DNA from: Longimicrobiales bacterium
Lineage (GTDB): Bacteria; Gemmatimonadota; Gemmatimonadetes; Longimicrobiales; RSA9
Reading direction: 5' to 3'
Length of the DNA stretch: 64,000 nt
NCBI GenBank assembly: GCA_050732635.1
Contig: JBOHRE010000001.1
Span: forward strand, 5,017 to 69,016
Position numbers and translations under genes: made by a program. The notes under the pieces were generated by a model. It was not told the origin of the DNA, did no database searches, and saw nothing but the letters and a program-made list of their open reading frames with translations. Shown here piece after piece: positions 10,485 to 18,117 of this stretch; the first letter of the stretch is position 1, and every line of letters begins with the position of its first letter.

Positions 10485-11096
10485 GTGCTGAACGCCGCGC
10501 TGGACTGGCTCGCCGCATTACCGCCGCTCGTGCTCTATCTGCTGATCGGGGCCGGCGCCGCCGTGGAGAACATCGTGCCGCCGATCCCGGCCGACACCTT
10601 CGTGCTGTTTGGCGGCTTTCTGGCGGCGCGCGGTCGCGCGGATCCGTGGCTGGTGTTCCTCGCTACATGGGTCTTCAACGTCGGCAGTGCGCTGGCGGTC
10701 TACGGTGTGGCCCGGCGCCATGACGAGACGATCCGCGAGTCGCGTGTCGGCCAGTGGCTGCTCAACCCGCACCAGCTCGAGCGCATTGCGACCTTCTATC
10801 AGCGCTGGGGTACGCCCGCCATCTTCTTCTCCCGGTTCTTTCCGGCGCTGCGCGCCATCGTGCCGGTTTTCGCGGGGCTCAGCGACATCGGCTTCTTTCG
10901 GATGGCGCTGCCGACCGCGATCGCCTCCGGGCTCTGGTACGGCCTCGTCGTCTACCTGGGCGCTGCGGCTGGGCGGAACTGGGAGGCGATCCAGGAGCAG
11001 CTCGGCACCGTGAATATCTGGCTACTCGCCGTGGCGGTACTGATCATCGGCGGCGGCCTGGTCTGGTGGTGGCGCACGCGGGGTCACCATCCGTGA
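10485..11096 (+). CDS. DedA/SNARE-associated (VTT domain) membrane protein
   Basis: Multi-pass hydrophobic protein with an ENIVPPIPAD motif and the FFSRFFPALR loop typical of DedA. Confidence 0.75.
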   Translation: MLNAALDWLAALPPLVLYLLIGAGAAVENIVPPIPADTFVLFGGFLAARGRADPWLVFLATWVFNVGSALAVYGVARRHDETIRESRVGQWLLNPHQLERIATFYQRWGTPAIFFSRFFPALRAIVPVFAGLSDIGFFRMALPTAIASGLWYGLVVYLGAAAGRNWEAIQEQLGTVNIWLLAVAVLIIGGGLVWWWRTRGHHP

Positions 11097-11986
11097 ACGG
11101 GTTCCGACTCCAGACCTTCATCGATCATCTGGCCGTCGAGCGCGGCCTCTCGCCGCGCACGATCGATGCGTATCGTCGCGACCTCACCCGGCTGATCGAT
11201 TACCTCGAGGCGCGCGGAGTATCCAGGGCTGCCGCCGCTTCCGACGCGGATCTGCGCGAGTTCGTCTACTCGCTCAAGGACCGGGGGCTCCAGCCCACCT
11301 CGATTCGCCGCAGCATCTCGGCGATCCGCGGCTACTACGCCTTTCTGCTGGCCGAGGGCGCGGTCGTCGAGGACCCGACGGAGCGGATCGATACGCCCAA
11401 GGTTTGGCGCCGGCTGCCCGGCGTCCTGAGCCGCGAGGAGATCGGCACGCTGCTCGAGGCACCCGACCCCGATGACCACCTCTTCTGGCGCGACAAGGCC
11501 ATGCTCGAGCTCGGCTACGCCTCCGGCGTGCGAGTCAGCGAGCTGATCGGGCTGACCACGCGTGACCTCATTCTCGATGAAGGCTTTGCCCGCGTCTTCG
11601 GCAAGGGCTCGCGCGAGCGCCTCGTGCCCGTCGGCCGTGCCGCGCTGCACGCGCTCGAGGTGTACCTCCGCGAGCTGCGCCCGCGCCTCGAGCGCGACGG
11701 CAGCAGCCGCGGCCGCGTCTTCCTCAATGCCCGCGGCGGCCCGCTCAGCCGCATGGGCGTGTGGAAGATCCTGCAGAAGCACGTCCGCCGCGCCGGCATC
11801 CGCAAGCGCGTGACGCCGCATACACTCCGTCACTCCTTTGCCACCCACCTGCTCGAGGGCGGCGCCGACCTCGCCTCCGTCCAGGAGATGCTCGGTCACG
11901 CCGACATCTCGACTACCCAGATCTACACCCACGTCGACCGCGAGTACCTGCGCGAGGTGCACCGGAAGTATCATCCCCGGGCGTGA
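11093..11986 (+). CDS. xerD: tyrosine site-specific recombinase, XerD-like (XerC/D family)
   Basis: N-terminal SAM-like domain ([23 protein letters not shown]). The catalytic region has [17 protein letters not shown] and [19 protein letters not shown] overlap with the dedA stop. Confidence 0.8.
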
Positions 11987-11995
11987 CCGCCCGCG

Positions 11996-12027
11996 GGTTC
12001 GTGGTTGGTGGTTGGTGGTTCGTGGTT
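11996..12027 (+). repeat. tandem heptamer array GGTT-CGTGGTT-GGTGGTT-GGTGGTT-CGTGGTT
   Basis: Read directly from the sequence. It lies 10 nt after the xerD stop. The 20-mer GTTCGTGGTTGGTGGTTGGT recurs at about 13959. Confidence 0.85.
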
Positions 12028-12067
12028 ACTCAGCACAACGGTTCGACCCAACCCCACGCCAGCGCGC

Positions 12068-12096
12068 TTGCCTTACCCTCAGCATAATGGTACAAT
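12068..12096 (+). promoter_or_regulatory. sigma-70-like promoter for vapBC (TTGCCT-N17-TACAAT)
   Basis: The -35 TTGCCT is at 12068-12073, followed by a 17-nt spacer and the -10 TACAAT at 12091-12096. It sits 38 nt upstream of the vapB ATG in a locally AT-rich patch. Confidence 0.4.
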
Positions 12097-12133
12097 GAGT
12101 AAGGAATATCACATCTAGTAAGGAAACCCCGGC

Positions 12134-12379
12134 ATGGCGGCCGCGACGCTCACATCGAAGGGGCAGATCACGATCCCGAAAACCATCCGGGACCGGCTGG
12201 GGCTCGAGCCGGGCGACCGGATCGACTTCGTGCTGGAGGGGGAGGGCCAGGTCGTGCTACGGCCGCGGACGCGCGACTTTCGGGCGCTCGAGGGCATTCT
12301 GTACCGGCCGGGCAGGAAGCCTGTCAGCGTGGAGCAGATGCGGGCCGGACTGCAGAAGCGATTTCGCAGGTCGACGTGA
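12134..12379 (+). CDS. vapB: AbrB/MazE/SpoVT-family antitoxin (VapB-like)
   Basis: 81 aa with the LTSKGQITIPKTIRDRLGLEPGDRIDF swapped-hairpin motif. 4-nt overlap with the downstream PIN gene. Confidence 0.8.
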   Translation: MAAATLTSKGQITIPKTIRDRLGLEPGDRIDFVLEGEGQVVLRPRTRDFRALEGILYRPGRKPVSVEQMRAGLQKRFRRST

Positions 12380-12816
12380 TCGCGCTCGATACGAATGTCC
12401 TGGTGCGATATCTGACGCAGGACGATCCGGTGCAGGCGCGCCAGGTGCGGGCGCTGCTCGAGTCGGTGGAGGCGGCGGGGGAGTCGGCGTACATCGGGGC
12501 GGTCTGCCTGTGCGAGGTCGTATGGGTCCTGGACTCCGCCTACGACTATTCACGCGCGGAGATCGCCCGTGCACTGGAAGGCGTGCTGGCCACGGCGCTC
12601 TTCGAAGTGGAGGCCGAGGAGCGGCTATGGATTGCGCTGGCGGACTATCGCGAGAAGCGGGGCGACTTCGCCGATTACGTGATTGGCCGAACCGCCGCAG
12701 CTGCCGGATGCACGCGGACCATGACGCTGGATCGGACGCTCGTGGGCGATCCGCTCTTCGAAGTCGTTCGCCTGCCAGCTAACGCTCGGCGCGGCCGGCG
12801 GGATCGAGGTACTTGA
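12376..12816 (+). CDS. vapC: PIN-domain ribonuclease toxin (VapC-like)
   Basis: The MIALDTNVLVRYL N-terminus carries the first acidic PIN residue. The ~145 aa size and the pairing with an AbrB-type antitoxin fit VapC. Confidence 0.8.
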   Translation: MIALDTNVLVRYLTQDDPVQARQVRALLESVEAAGESAYIGAVCLCEVVWVLDSAYDYSRAEIARALEGVLATALFEVEAEERLWIALADYREKRGDFADYVIGRTAAAAGCTRTMTLDRTLVGDPLFEVVRLPANARRGRRDRGT

Positions 12817-12880
12817 GTCCGCTATACACCGCGATATCGTAGTGCACGAGTTGCGCGCGTGCTCTCTGAGCCGGTCGCGC

Positions 12881-13933
12881 TCATCCGCAGCTCCGCCCGG
12901 CCAGGAACCAACAGGCGGTGAACGGGGAGGTCTTGAAGAAGGCCAGCAGCTCGGCGGCGACCTTGGCCTCGCCGGTGCGGGCGGGGTGCGTGCCGTCGGC
13001 TTCGAATTCGGAGCGGACCCAGAAGAAGCCGTCGGCGCGAGGCGAGGAGGCGTCACCGGCCCAGAGGTAGGGACCCCAGGCGAGCCACGGGGCGACGTCG
13101 TCGTAGTCGAGGTCTCGGGCGCGAGGGTCGACGGCCCCCGTCCGCATCTGCTCAATCTGCGCGTCGATCAGCCATTTCACGGCAAAGCCGGTCTCGTACG
13201 CGTACGGCTCCGGATTGAGGGGGGTGGTGGCGAAGCCGGCATAGATGCGGCTGGATACGAAGAGCTGCTGGAGGTTCGGGTAGCGCGTCTTCACTGCGCG
13301 AGCGATGTCGCCCAGGCTCTCGAGCAGCGCGAGTGCATCCGCATCCTCGTCTGGGAGCGACGTCGACGGCTGAGCGTTCGCGTGTTTCATCCACGCGATC
13401 TGTACCTGGTCTTCGCTGAGTCCGAGCGGTCGAAGGCCCTCGTCCCGGACGCGATCATAGTTCGGGTCGCTGGGTGAGTCCCAGGTCTCGGCGACGCGCC
13501 CGCCTCGCGCGCCGTTGACGATCACGAGGCGGGTGCGGTCGACGGCGGGATCGGAGGCCGCGCGGCCCATGAAGGTCCAGCTCTCGCATTCCGTGTAGCC
13601 GCCGACGCCGCAGAACTCCTGGCTCACGTTCGACATGCCGATCGAGAGCATGACGTATTTGCCGGCCGGATCGGGTCGCCCGGCGGCATCCAGCGGCTGG
13701 ATGGCGGCCGCGCGGAGGAGCCCCTCGGCCACGTGATCAGCGGGCGGCTGGTTCGCGCCATCGCCGTACAGACCGCCGGTGTAGCCCAGATACGTGCGTG
13801 TGCCGAGGTCGGTCAGCGGCACGCCGATCGTGTCCGTTGGCGCCGGGCCGCGCTCGACCTGTGTCGGCGTGCCGCTGCAGCCGATGGCGACGACGAGCGC
13901 CTGGATTGTCGCACCGATGGTCCATCCGCGCAT
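12881..13933 (-). CDS. putative SGNH/GDSL-like hydrolase lipoprotein
   Basis: Lipobox VVAIGC at the N-terminus. IGMSN (Ser block), NGARGG and ADGTHP (DxxH block) are arranged as in SGNH esterases. This is a motif-level call only. Confidence 0.4.
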   Translation of the reverse strand: MRGWTIGATIQALVVAIGCSGTPTQVERGPAPTDTIGVPLTDLGTRTYLGYTGGLYGDGANQPPADHVAEGLLRAAAIQPLDAAGRPDPAGKYVMLSIGMSNVSQEFCGVGGYTECESWTFMGRAASDPAVDRTRLVIVNGARGGRVAETWDSPSDPNYDRVRDEGLRPLGLSEDQVQIAWMKHANAQPSTSLPDEDADALALLESLGDIARAVKTRYPNLQQLFVSSRIYAGFATTPLNPEPYAYETGFAVKWLIDAQIEQMRTGAVDPRARDLDYDDVAPWLAWGPYLWAGDASSPRADGFFWVRSEFEADGTHPARTGEAKVAAELLAFFKTSPFTACWFLAGRSCG

Positions 13934-13952
13934 GGAGTGCTCCTAGCCGCCG

Positions 13953-13978
13953 TTGGTGGTTCGTGGTTGGTGGTTGGT
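13953..13978 (+). repeat. tandem heptamer array (TTGGTGGTT-CGTGGTT-GGTGGTT-GGT), direct copy of the 11996 array
   Basis: Read directly. It lies 20 nt upstream of the start of the minus-strand lipoprotein gene. Confidence 0.85.
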
Positions 13979-13986
13979 CGACCCTA

Positions 13987-14026
13987 CCCACCACAAACCA
14001 CTAACTACCAACCACCAACTACCAAC
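13987..14026 (+). repeat. inverted, degenerate heptamer array (reverse complement reads GTTGGTA-GTTGGTG-GTTGGTA-GTTAGTG-GTTTGTG-GTGGG)
   Basis: Read directly. It forms an imperfect long hairpin or cruciform with 13953-13978 (8-nt loop). It is also inverted relative to the 11996 array. Confidence 0.8.
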
Positions 14027-14109
14027 GCCCCCCAGCAACTATGACGCCGTCGTGGCGGGAACGCAGAGAGCTTCCGCCCGTGGCGGCCGCCCTTTAGCTT
14101 CCGGGCCTC

Positions 14110-14688
14110 ATGGTCTTTGTCCTCGACAACTACGACTCCTTCACGTTCAACCTGGTCCAGTACCTGGGCGAGCTGGGCGCGGCGCCGGTGGTCCGGCGCA
14201 ACGACGAGGTGAGCGTGGAAGATGTGCGCGCGCTGGCGCCTGACCGGATCGTCATCTCGCCTGGGCCGTGCACGCCGGCAGAGGCCGGCATCAGCGTCGA
14301 GCTGATCCGTAGCCTCGGCCCGAGCACGCCGATTCTCGGCGTCTGCCTGGGCCACCAGGCCATCGGCGAGGCGTTCGGCGGCCGCGTCGTGCGTGCACGG
14401 CGCCAGATGCACGGCAAGTGCTCGCGCGTCGCACACAATGGAGCCGACATCTTCGCCGGGCTGCCGGCGCCGCTCACGGTGACGCGCTACCATTCGCTCA
14501 TCGTCGAACGCGAGTCGTTGCCGGGTGAGCTGGAGGTCACAGCGTGGACCGATGAGCCGGGCTGGCAGGATGAGATCCAGGGGCTGCGGCACCGTACGCT
14601 GCCCGTGTGGGGCGTGCAATTCCACCCGGAATCGATCGCCAGCGAGCACGGCAAGGAGCTGCTCGGCAACTTTCTGAGCCTGTCGTGA
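14110..14688 (+). CDS. trpG: anthranilate/aminodeoxychorismate synthase glutamine amidotransferase component
   Basis: [19 protein letters not shown], the GVCLGHQ catalytic Cys and WGVQFHPES motifs. TrpG cannot be distinguished from PabA from sequence alone. Confidence 0.85.
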
Positions 14689-16283
14689 GGCGACGCTCGC
14701 TCGAACCGGTCGCGGGCGCGTCCGGTCTCCTACTGCTCGTCGTCTTGCTGTCCTGGCCGCGTGTGCCCGCGGCGGCGCAGGATGTCAGGGTGCGCGGGCG
14801 CGGCGAGCTGGAGCTCGACGCGCGGCTCGACCGCGCGCTCGCCGACGACTACCTGCTGGTCACAGCCGACACCGTGATCAGCCGGGGCGACGACGCCCGC
14901 CGCACGATCCTCGTCCTCAATGCAATGCTCGCCGTGGAAGGTGAAGTCGCGGGCGACATCGTAGCCGTGGACGCGAACGTGTTCCTGCGGCCGCGCTCGC
15001 GGGTGCGGGGCGACGTCGTCAACCTCGGTGGCGGGCTGTACCGCTCCGAGCTGGCGACGATCGACGGCGAGATCATCGATCGACCGCTCGCGGACTATAC
15101 GGCACTCGGCGTCGGTGACCACTGGCTGATCTGGCGCCGCGCGGCGCGCAGCGGGCCGATCGTCTTCGACGGTCCCTTCGGCGTCGAGCTGCCGACCTAC
15201 GACCGGGTGAACGGCGTGCGACTCGGCTGGGGCGCGGGATATCGATTGCCGTTCGGCCGCGCGCTGCGGCCCGAGGTCCATGCGGGCGTACGCTACTTCT
15301 CGGAGCGAGGCGCGTGGGGTGGGCGCGGCGAGCTGCTGCTGCGCCTCGACACGGCCACCGTGCACGTCGGCTACGACCGCGATGCGCTGACCAACGAGCG
15401 CTGGATCAAGAGCGACCTCATGAACAGCGCGGTGCACCTGCTGAAAGGCAAGGACTACCGCGATTACTACGACGCCGAGCGCTGGTATGTCGGCATCGAC
15501 TGGCCGCTGCGCCTACGCGGCATTGCCGTTACGGCGACCGCCGCGCTGCGGCACGAGCGCGCGCGTACGCTGCGCGCCGACGAGCCGTGGAGCATCCTGA
15601 AGCCGGATTCGCTGCGCCCGAACCTGCCGGCCGGCGGCGACATCAACAGTGTTCTGCTCGGCGGTGCAGGGGAGTGGGAGGGCGTCAGCAGCCGCCTGCA
15701 GATGAGCGTCGGCGGCGAGCTCGGGTTGGATGCGCCCGTACCGAGCGGCTGTGTGCTCCCCGGCGACAGCTGCACCCCGCAGGCGCTGCCCGAGCGCAGC
15801 TACGGACTGCTCAGCGTCGACCTGGATTACGCCGCGAACACGTTTCGCGACCACTCGCTGCTCGTCGAGGCGCACGTCCAGGCGCCGGTCGGTGGTGGCA
15901 CGCTGCCGCTGCAGCGGTGGAGCTTCGTCGGCGGCTCGGGCACGCTCTGGACCTTCGAGATGGCCGAGTTCCGCGGCGACCGGATTCTCTTCGCCGACAC
16001 CCGATACCGGATCCCGCTGCCACTGATCGTGCCCGTGCTCGGCCGGCTCGAGCTCGACCTCAGGCACGCCGCCGGCATGGCGTGGGCGGAGGGCGTCAGC
16101 CGCGACATCGAGCAGAACATCGGTCTCGAGCTGCGCGGGCTCGCCGTCTACGCACGCATCGTCACCAACCCGGCCAGCTTCAGCGACGACGTCGAGCTTT
16201 CCGTCGGCCTCTTCAACCCCATCGGTGCGAACTTCCCATGGGCAAGCCGCGCACCTCAGCCCGAGCCCCAGCCCCAGCCCTAA
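14685..16283 (+). CDS. secreted hypothetical protein with bactofilin-like beta-helix repeats and a beta-rich C-terminal region
   Basis: GTGA overlap with trpG. Signal-like [19 protein letters not shown]. Repetitive V/G-rich segment ([33 protein letters not shown]). The PQPEPQPQP tail is encoded by a hexamer array. Confidence 0.45.
16241..16280 (+). repeat. GGCAAGCC + (CCTCAG-CCCGAG-CCCCAG-CCCCAG-CCC) hexamer array
   Basis: Read directly. It encodes the C-terminal PQPEPQPQP of the upstream CDS. A direct-repeat partner lies at 18076-18117. Confidence 0.8.
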
Positions 16284-18075: not shown

Positions 18076-18117
18076 GCAAGCCACCCCAGCCCCAGCCCGA
18101 GCCCCAGCCCGAGCCCG
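18076..18117 (+). repeat. GGCAAGCC + (CCCCAG-CCCCAG-CCCGAG-CCCCAG-CCCGAG-CCC) hexamer array
   Basis: Read directly. It is intergenic, between the divergent peptidase and kdsB starts. Confidence 0.8.

Follow-up and report, generated by a model that had tools for sequence, protein, structure and literature searches.

Since 1990, starting with the STRR sequences of cyanobacteria, heptameric tandem repeats have been known to be in excess between the genes of bacteria, and we know of no mechanism given for this. Here, we analyzed a 64,000-nucleotide stretch (the window) of a Gemmatimonadota metagenome-assembled genome (MAG), in which tandem arrays of the heptamer (G/C)(G/A)TGGTT lie at both ends of a gene block, a vapBC pair and a lipoprotein-like open reading frame (ORF), that separates xerD from trpG. 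A first-pass annotation of the stretch had taken these arrays as possible ends of a mobile cassette. We find that the arrays belong to a family dispersed over the genome, that the family is linked to a gene of the PF05635 (S23p) type, and that the gene block is an insertion.

Several dispersed heptamer families have been described. Rehm et al. (2015) reported about 185 intergenic GGGAATC arrays per Xanthomonas genome, with 70-75 convergent inverted pairs; the arrays lie near stop and start codons, are transcribed and are unlinked to insertion sequence (IS) elements, and the corresponding unit in Nostoc is GGGGAYT (PMC4692102). TAACTGA heptamers were described in Beggiatoaceae, cyanobacteria and Bacteroidetes by MacGregor (2015; PMC4679880), and 49 GGGACCG-type elements are present in the genome of Geobacter metallireducens (PMC2700814). 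Tandem heptamers are also found in a different setting, the intervening sequence (IVS) of the Coxiella 23S rRNA gene, which carries an S23p ORF within the loop of its stem of 28 bp and is excised by RNase III; its GACAGAT heptamers vary in number between strains, and its origin is unknown (Warrier et al. 2016; PMC4990558).

Heptamer arrays at both ends of the vapBC-lipoprotein block

All three arrays in the window have a period of 7 nt and the unit (G/C)(G/A)TGGTT (Table 1). The left array begins 10 nt past the stop codon of xerD (TGA, 11984-11986), the right-hand array pair terminates 84 nt upstream of the trpG start, and the 20-mer GTTCGTGGTTGGTGGTTGGT is found at both sites. When up to two mismatches were allowed, the 14-mer GGTGGTTGGTGGTT, which comprises two units, had 8 matches in the window, all of them at the two array sites, compared to 0.15 expected. 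The chance estimate was obtained from shuffles; a reversed-sequence control is invalid here because GGTGGTT is a rotation of its own reverse.

The right-hand pair (13952-14026) forms a hairpin of about 26-27 bp, with a DNA folding energy of -20.9 kcal/mol (z -3.5) and, folded as RNA, of -38.3 kcal/mol with about 26 centre-spanning pairs. The left array alone (11996-12027) folds no better than its shuffles (z 0.08), and its reading as a degenerate hairpin was rejected. A search of positions 11500-14500 against Rfam returned no known RNA family, only sub-threshold microRNA look-alikes on the hairpin. The first-pass annotation had placed arrays at 11996-12027, about 13953-13978 and, inverted, about 13987-14026, the first of them 10 nt after the xerD stop, and had noted a 20-mer identical at both sites and a long imperfect hairpin at the right end; all of this was confirmed by direct reading, Tandem Repeats Finder, the shuffle count and, for the hairpin, its fold.

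The arrays belong to a genome-wide, lineage-specific family

The host genome (G000) is a 3.59-Mb MAG of 242 contigs with 68.7% GC and 95.5% completeness, the window lying on contig C1. The similarity of its XerD places it in Gemmatimonadales or Longimicrobiales. Counting runs of at least three consecutive NNTGGTT units, we found 85 arrays at 66 loci on at least 45 contigs, with unit counts of 147 for GATGGTT, 98 for GGTGGTT and 25 for CGTGGTT. The period-7 tandem repeats of this genome are essentially this family alone, dominated by AACCATC, AACCACC and AACCACG. According to a crude, home-made gene caller based on GC at third codon positions (GC3), 63 of 80 arrays are intergenic, and about 2% of intergenic regions carry an array; many arrays start 0-30 nt past a stop codon or abut a start codon. 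Their distribution is clustered in places: nine loci lie on the 29-kb contig C38, and five spacers of the tuf-S10-spc ribosomal-protein region (C90:3079-10859) carry arrays, namely rpsJ-rplC (a hairpin with a 7-nt loop), rplC-rplD, rplW-rplB (11 units), rpsC-rplP and rplF-rplR. The genes flanking the arrays have no common function. The genome-wide search suggested in the first-pass annotation thus did uncover many further copies, about 80 arrays at 66 loci, and they are not specific to the vapBC-lipoprotein block. According to the annotation, its proposal would fall if the arrays were common filler akin to repetitive extragenic palindromic (REP) sequences, with no association to variable gene content, and the cassette were conserved; the first half is borne out in part, in that the 66 loci include plainly conserved junctions, whereas the cassette is not conserved in relatives.

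Two features of the arrays that might affect translation were noted. At C36:1875, C97:6389 and C153:180, the C-rich strand reaches a start codon without a Shine-Dalgarno sequence (for example, ...AACCACC-ATG), and (GATGGTT)n contains UGA in every frame together with overlapping AUG-GUU-GAU-GGU-UGA mini-ORFs.

Eighteen of the loci are inverted pairs, and in each of them the G-rich arm precedes the C-rich arm in the 5'-to-3' direction (18:0). As a G-arm-first geometry reads identically on either strand, this asymmetry of polarity is real; the right-hand hairpin of the window has the same polarity. The two arms are separated by spacers of 7-82 nt, mostly 40-60 nt, and fold as RNA into centre-spanning stems of 21-41 bp (median 27.5) with a median free energy of -62 kcal/mol. 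Many hairpins continue outward, the left side with (CCCCG)n and the right side with (CGGGG)n. Among the hairpin centres there are at least three multi-copy subfamilies, whose members at unrelated loci are 85-97% identical, suggesting that whole elements have been copied rather than merely extended by slippage. Slippage itself probably contributes to the arms: unit variants lie in blocks, as expected from it, for example eight GGTGGTT followed by four GATGGTT in the array on contig C8. A separate set of about 70 (CCCCGC)n arrays is dispersed in the same genome (e.g. C90:6758, C98:2332 and C3:54089) and often adjoins the heptamer elements, lengthening their palindromes; neither a PF05635-bearing copy nor inverted pairs of this family were found in G000.

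Outside the host genome, the unit itself is rare. (GRTGGTT)3 has 76 matches in G000, none in 60 relatives, all of which belong to other genera, and none in 0.97 Mb of XerD loci; among 400 other Gemmatimonadota genomes it was found in only two, with 3 and 10 matches. Other Gemmatimonadales have period-7 units of their own, including GCGGATA, ATAGCTA, GGTGAGA, GACCGAA and GGGAGAT. In one of these genomes (G438), (GCGGATA)n has 454 matches of three units at up to two mismatches, with the TATCCGC arm first in all pairs listed, and in another (G439) (ATAGCTA)n has 83 matches. Across the families of Gemmatimonadales, the invariants are thus the 7-nt period and the polarity, not the unit sequence. 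A metagenome scan for (GATGGTT)3GRTGGTT yielded 80 loci of 32-70% GC, none from a close relative of G000, which shows that a bare GATGGTT microsatellite arises sporadically in many organisms.

G-quadruplexes (G4s) of two tetrads are marginally stable. The first-pass annotation had pointed to a resemblance of the arrays to two-tetrad G4 formers such as the thrombin-binding aptamer; as G4-forming regulatory DNA, they would act like this aptamer or the Xanthomonas GGGAATC repeats. GGTGGTT arrays do provide GG tracts with loops of 1 and 2 nt, and the Xanthomonas and Nostoc heptamers form G4s in vitro (PMC4692102); however, the commonest unit of the present family, GATGGTT, offers a single GG per 7 nt, G3 tracts are absent from all of its units, and ATAGCTA, GCGGATA and GACCGAA of other Gemmatimonadales are unable to form G4s. 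The G4 idea is weak, and we give it almost no credence.

PF05635 genes lie between inverted arms of tandem repeats

The longest heptamer element of G000, on contig C8, consists of a 12-unit G-arm, about 490 nt of loop and a C-arm, with arms of about 75 bp that consist of GGTGGTT/GATGGTT units. It is the sole gene-bearing heptamer copy in the genome, and its loop encodes a PF05635 four-helix-bundle protein that matches the Xanthomonas S23p structure (PDB 2GSC) with an E-value of 1.4e-19. Each of the four PF05635 ORFs of G000 is enclosed by inverted arms of tandem repeats, the G-rich one lying upstream on the sense strand (Table 1), and three of the four arm units correspond to the main dispersed short-repeat families of this genome. 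These families share the polarity described above: G-arm-first and C-arm-first inverted pairs number 18:0 in the GRTGGTT family (80 arrays), 13:1 in the GGGGCT family (103 arrays) and 3:0 in the AAGTGT family (21 arrays). The GGGGCT family also has members in the window, (CCCCAG)n arrays at 16257-16280 and 18084-18116 that flank an M28 peptidase gene.

The association extends to other genomes. Inverted arms enclose all nine PF05635 ORFs examined in G438 and all three in G439, mostly with period 7, so that in the three Gemmatimonadales genomes 16 of the 16 genes examined lie between inverted tandem-repeat arms; the arm units of G438 and G439 are likewise dispersed without a gene (454 and 83 matches). 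Among 16 PF05635 ORFs examined in Ignavibacteria, Caldithrix and Armatimonadota, 10 have clear arms, 5 have partial arms and 1 has none, one ORF (L233, Caldithrix genome G445) having been scored on one side only as its 5' flank is a run of N. The closest-related PF05635 proteins tend toward common arm cores, as for L218/L225 (CCTCTCA), L231/L235 (CAGAAGT), an ATAGC-core group and L219/L221. The exception is L237 of the Armatimonadota genome G443 (C1:3610583-3610891), whose ORF has arms of (GATGGTT)4 and of degenerate AACCATC units; its protein is not a close relative of those of G000 despite the common unit, which looks like convergence on GATGGTT.

In the genomes examined, arms were seen to enclose no cargo other than one PF05635 ORF of about 0.3-0.5 kb. 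No PF05635 hit was obtained in the window or elsewhere on contig C1. The hairpin at 13952-14026 has an inverted-repeat stem of at least 20 bp with tandem heptamers, as in an IVS-type element, while the solo array at 11996-12027 does not. Together, these data show that PF05635 genes are linked to the heptamer family. Full-text literature searches found no paper linking PF05635 genes to dispersed heptamer families, and the terms "S23p", "intervening" and "four-helix" receive no mention in the text of PMC4692102.

Each of the GRTGGTT, GGGGCT and AAGTGT families has exactly one gene-bearing copy and 20-100 gene-less arrays. Based on this, we tentatively propose that each PF05635 gene may be the master copy of its own heptamer-armed hairpin family, whose protein would recognize the cognate unit and promote or protect the copying by which gene-less arms reach new intergenic sites. 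If so, the intergenic heptamer excess, from STRR, Xanthomonas GGGAATC and Beggiatoaceae TAACTGA to the present families, could be the footprint of S23p elements, and arrays might make junctions such as xerD-trpG prone to gene gain. We know of no function for the S23p proteins of rRNA IVSs, whose structure has been solved; they are akin to the Avd proteins of diversity-generating retroelements (DGRs).

Of the RNase III families, neither PF14622 nor PF00636 was detected in G000, and PF14622 likewise gave no match in 20 relatives from the same order, which include five single-contig genomes of 97-100% completeness; the same search matched 8 control genomes. The order may thus lack a canonical RNase III, which would bear on the tolerance of long double-stranded RNA stems. 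Since RNase III was not found, the excision step of rRNA IVSs is not transferable to the present lineage.

The arrays might also be functional cis-elements, either RNA or DNA binding sites for a cognate S23p pentamer or another protein, or sites of mRNA stabilization or processing that adjust the expression of neighboring genes, in this case the divergent promoters of the lipoprotein gene and trpG and the 3' end of xerD. Such a role would fit with the common arm cores of the closest PF05635 relatives, the start of arrays 0-30 nt from stop or start codons, the transcription of Xanthomonas arrays (PMC4692102) and the toroidal homopentamer formed by S23p (PMC4990558). However, the arrays show no orientation bias with respect to transcription, the G-rich strand being in sense in about 20 and the C-rich strand in about 15 of the solo arrays with co-directional neighbors. 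Similarly, the 16 hairpins with both neighbors called lie in 5 divergent, 8 co-directional and 3 convergent regions, near chance, and are not depleted in divergent regions. Moreover, the flanking genes share no function, no conserved regulon exists since none of the 60 relatives searched carries the family, GATGGTT also flanks the unrelated Armatimonadota PF05635 protein, and RNase III was not found in G000 or 20 relatives. We consider a cis-regulatory role quite improbable. A role as terminators was rejected: there are no T-tract terminators, and the hairpin frequency in divergent regions matches the chance expectation.

The vapBC-lipoprotein block is a lineage-specific insertion

In 21 Gemmatimonadota loci, the gene order is ispF-dedA-xerD-trpG with xerD 0-91 nt from trpG, and in the two closest relatives the xerD stop overlaps the trpG start. 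No homolog of vapB, vapC or the lipoprotein gene was found in any of 80 relative loci. As xerD abuts trpG in these relatives and the block genes are absent from them, the 2.1-kb vapBC-lipoprotein block is an insertion specific to the lineage and probably a separate gene gain; the expectation in the first-pass annotation that xerD would adjoin trpG where the cassette is absent holds in the 21 loci.

Table 1. Features around the xerD-trpG junction (window coordinates) and arm units of the PF05635 ORFs of the host genome (contig coordinates, of the whole element on C8 and of the ORF itself on C17 and C56)
Feature	Position	Strand	Evidence or remark
xerD (tyrosine recombinase), conserved backbone gene left of the insertion	11066-11986	+	PF00589, PF02899
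Solo G-rich heptamer array, (C/G)GTGGTT x 4.6	11996-12027	+	Tandem Repeats Finder period 7, 92% matches; without partner arm
Promoter-like site of vapBC, TTGCCT-17-TACAAT	12068-12096	+	Consensus scan only
vapB-type antitoxin (MazE/AbrB fold)	12134-12379	+	PF04014, E 2.7e-14
vapC-type PIN-domain toxin	12376-12816	+	PF01850, E 6.4e-11; start overlapping vapB stop
350-aa lipoprotein-like accessory ORF	12881-13933	-	Pfam search without match
G-rich arm of gene-less heptamer hairpin element	13952-13978	+	Tandem Repeats Finder 3.9 copies, 90% matches; pairs with 13984-14026
C-rich arm of right-hand hairpin (degenerate AACCACC/AACTACC units)	13984-14026	-	Tandem Repeats Finder 13986-14026, 5.9 copies, 79% matches
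trpG/pabA glutamine amidotransferase, conserved backbone gene right of the insertion	14110-14688	+	PF00117
Arms of PF05635 ORF	C8:55928-56574		Unit GRTGGTT
Arms of PF05635 ORF	C17:41516-41824		Unit GGGCTG/CCCCAG; gene-bearing copy of GGGGCT family
Arms of PF05635 ORF	C56:7782-8075		Unit AAGTGT/ACACTT
Arms of PF05635 ORF	C17:4022-4249		Tandem unit of about 48 nt

The content of the block had been described as vapBC plus a lipoprotein gene without transposase or integrase, and Pfam searches bear this out for the vapBC pair, with no recombinase among the enclosed genes by either Pfam or the ORF list; the "SGNH-like" label given to the lipoprotein ORF found no support in Pfam. Of 18 genomes from the same family, 5 have a homolog of the lipoprotein (39-61% identity), while none was found in 12 genomes from two other families, and at the two homolog loci inspected vapBC, xerD and trpG are not adjacent. 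Thus, the block is not a travelling unit, nor is it a conserved one.

Other inserts of 0.8-4.5 kb occupy the xerD-trpG junction in six lineages (L011, L028 and L056, as well as L031, L033 and L042, which have a block of about 4 kb in common), indicating that the junction is a recurrent site of gene gain. The inserts of L011, L028, L031, L033 and L056 have no arrays at their edges. L042 has none at the xerD side, and at the other edge of its own 4.2-kb insert a (GGTGAGA)3...(CCTCTCA)7 hairpin ends 17 nt upstream of trpG. Directly after xerD in L031 (8913-9164) lies a small GxxExxY-type (PDDEXK_3-like) ORF, the N-terminus of which comes from repeat-like sequence (...HHEGTKSTKGTK...).

Two Xer- or integrase-dependent explanations of the insertion were rejected. 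The units GTTGGTG and GTTGATG do not match the GTTRRRY of attC cores, vapBC has its own promoter-like site, and the neighboring recombinase is the syntenic XerD ortholog of more than 40 relatives, all of which argues against an integron gene cassette. Indeed, xerD is orthologous and the ispF-dedA-xerD synteny is kept in more than 40 Gemmatimonadota loci. Sequence and synteny likewise led us to reject an integrative mobile element exploiting Xer (IMEX); no search for dif-like sites was made at the edges of the block.

Origin of the window arrays

The reading we favor, with a probability of about 0.6, is that the window sites, a solo array and a hairpin, are gene-less members of the lineage-specific, genome-wide heptamer family, that such elements are near-neutral or selfish palindromic DNA spread by copying, and that the gene block was gained separately, the arrays not being the ends that moved it. 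Under this reading, whole elements would be copied to new intergenic sites, their arms would lengthen and shorten by slippage, and they would be tolerated wherever no reading frame is broken, operon interiors included. The vapBC-lipoprotein block would have been gained on its own at a junction where different inserts were acquired by several Gemmatimonadales lineages; the arrays would have colonized this junction, or already occupied it, and would now sit in the two new intergenic regions without having carried the genes.

Several observations weigh against this reading. At the flanks of the 18 hairpins, many of which are themselves inverted (CCCCG)n...(CGGGG)n, no direct repeat was recognized as a target-site duplication. 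The hairpin centres lack the similarity to the interior of the C8 element that deletion derivatives of the gene-bearing copy would show, and they were accordingly rejected as its remnants. No candidate enzyme emerged either: the REP-associated tyrosine transposase (RAYT, PF01797) had 0 matches in G000, at its completeness of 95.5% and with control searches matching, and reverse transcriptase (PF00078) was not found in G000. The single PF13366 (GxxExxY nuclease) gene of G000 (C67:17517-17864) has on its two sides an inverted repeat of another kind, made up of ACGCAGAGG-like units; present in one copy and with a framing repeat unrelated to GRTGGTT, it was rejected as the enzyme of the heptamer family, leaving no array-linked nuclease, and no transposase was linked to the hairpins. 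In addition, the presence of arrays at both junctions of one three-gene block has a probability of about 5e-4 if sites are independent, as inferred from the roughly 2% of intergenic regions with an array, and in the independent lineage L042 a heptamer hairpin likewise lies just upstream of trpG, next to the insert of that lineage. Finally, the comparison genomes all belong to other genera, so that movement (filled and empty sites) is not seen, and the analysis relies on a draft MAG of 242 contigs with crude gene calls.

The arrays at both junctions and the L042 hairpin are the points from which a contribution of the arrays to gene gain could be argued. A hairpin may have pre-existed at the xerD-trpG junction, and incoming DNA may have been inserted into its G-rich arm or adjacent to it, after breakage induced by the hairpin or by recombination between arrays, so that a portion of the arm stayed beside xerD and the remainder of the hairpin beside trpG. 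Both insert junctions indeed carry arrays in direct orientation with an identical 20-mer, and the nearest relatives lack the entire sequence between the xerD stop and the start of trpG; the L042 hairpin, of a different unit, lies at an insert edge in the same position, and the chance co-occurrence is as low as given above under site independence. However, sites are not independent, since arrays cluster elsewhere, as on contig C38. Five of the six other inserts lack edge arrays altogether and L042 lacks one at the xerD side, arrays also sit at ancient unbroken junctions such as those of the ribosomal-protein operon, and the common 20-mer is simply how any two arrays of the CGTGGTT/GGTGGTT subtype would appear. 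We thus regard such a contribution as unlikely.

Under the mobile-cassette proposal of the first-pass annotation, the arrays at 11996-12027 and 13984-14026 would instead be the terminal inverted repeats of a non-autonomous element with vapBC and the lipoprotein gene as cargo. The outer pair does have the polarity of the family, with a G-arm 5' of a C-arm as in the layout of the gene-bearing C8 element, and the block is absent from relatives. However, the sole cargo seen between arms in the genomes examined is one PF05635 ORF of about 0.3-0.5 kb, an additional G-arm lies inside the proposed ends, and array pairs at kilobase scale are not enriched for the G...C arrangement (4, compared to 2 for C...G and about 7 on the same strand). 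Moreover, the block has no second copy, lipoprotein homologs occur elsewhere, without vapBC in the two loci inspected, and vapBC has its own promoter-like site according to the consensus scan. With about 80 arrays at 66 loci, unenriched kilobase pairs and a block that is not a unit, the proposal that the arrays are cassette ends is unsupported, and we judge it very unlikely.

For annotation, this means that such arrays beside accessory genes are not to be read as cassette ends. G000 ties heptamer repeats to S23p through three short-repeat families, each with one S23p-enclosing copy and tens of gene-less ones, and in its relatives the unit sequence has been replaced but the 7-nt period and the polarity have been retained, thereby providing natural specificity variants. 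A cognate protein-repeat pair is a testable hypothesis.

Comparison with known systems

Like MITEs (miniature inverted-repeat transposable elements), the hairpins have terminal inverted repeats, a length of 70-150 nt and multi-copy subfamilies with a conserved interior at unrelated loci. Different from MITEs, they have no recognized target-site duplication and no cognate transposase was found, and their arm length varies by unit number. They also resemble REP sequences and REPINs in that both are short palindromic repeats that lie outside genes in dozens of copies, frequently right after stop codons or inside operons, with inverted doublets that form hairpins. However, unlike in REP/REPIN-RAYT systems, no PF01797 was found in G000, the arms are tandem heptamers rather than a fixed palindrome of 20-40 nt, and the associated gene encodes a four-helix-bundle protein without known catalytic activity, unlike RAYT.

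The C8 copy, with its PF05635 ORF in the loop of a long inverted-repeat stem, is similar to the ORF-bearing 23S rRNA IVSs of Coxiella burnetii and Leptospira (PMC4990558), which likewise carry tandem heptamers of variable copy number in an arm and are regarded as selfish, with unknown means of mobility (PMC4990558). In contrast to these IVSs, the window sites have no ORF and lie between protein genes, no copy was seen in an rRNA gene, the arms are much longer arrays, and the enzyme that excises IVSs, RNase III, was not detected in G000 or 20 relatives.

The closest likeness is to the heptamers of Xanthomonas, Nostoc, STRR, Beggiatoaceae and Geobacter. The host family differs from the Xanthomonas and Nostoc heptamers in that GATGGTT, GGTGGTT and CGTGGTT have only GG where those have G3-4 tracts, so that the G4 rationale is not transferable; in addition, the G000 hairpins are not depleted from divergent intergenic regions, and the host is a Gemmatimonadota MAG. 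As in the described families, its arrays have period 7 and 2 to more than 10 units and are dispersed over tens to hundreds of mostly intergenic sites, often less than 50 nt from a stop or start codon, with many convergent inverted pairs, no link to IS elements and a lineage-specific unit. The window arrays are thus a member of the published type of dispersed heptamer repeats known from Xanthomonas and Nostoc.

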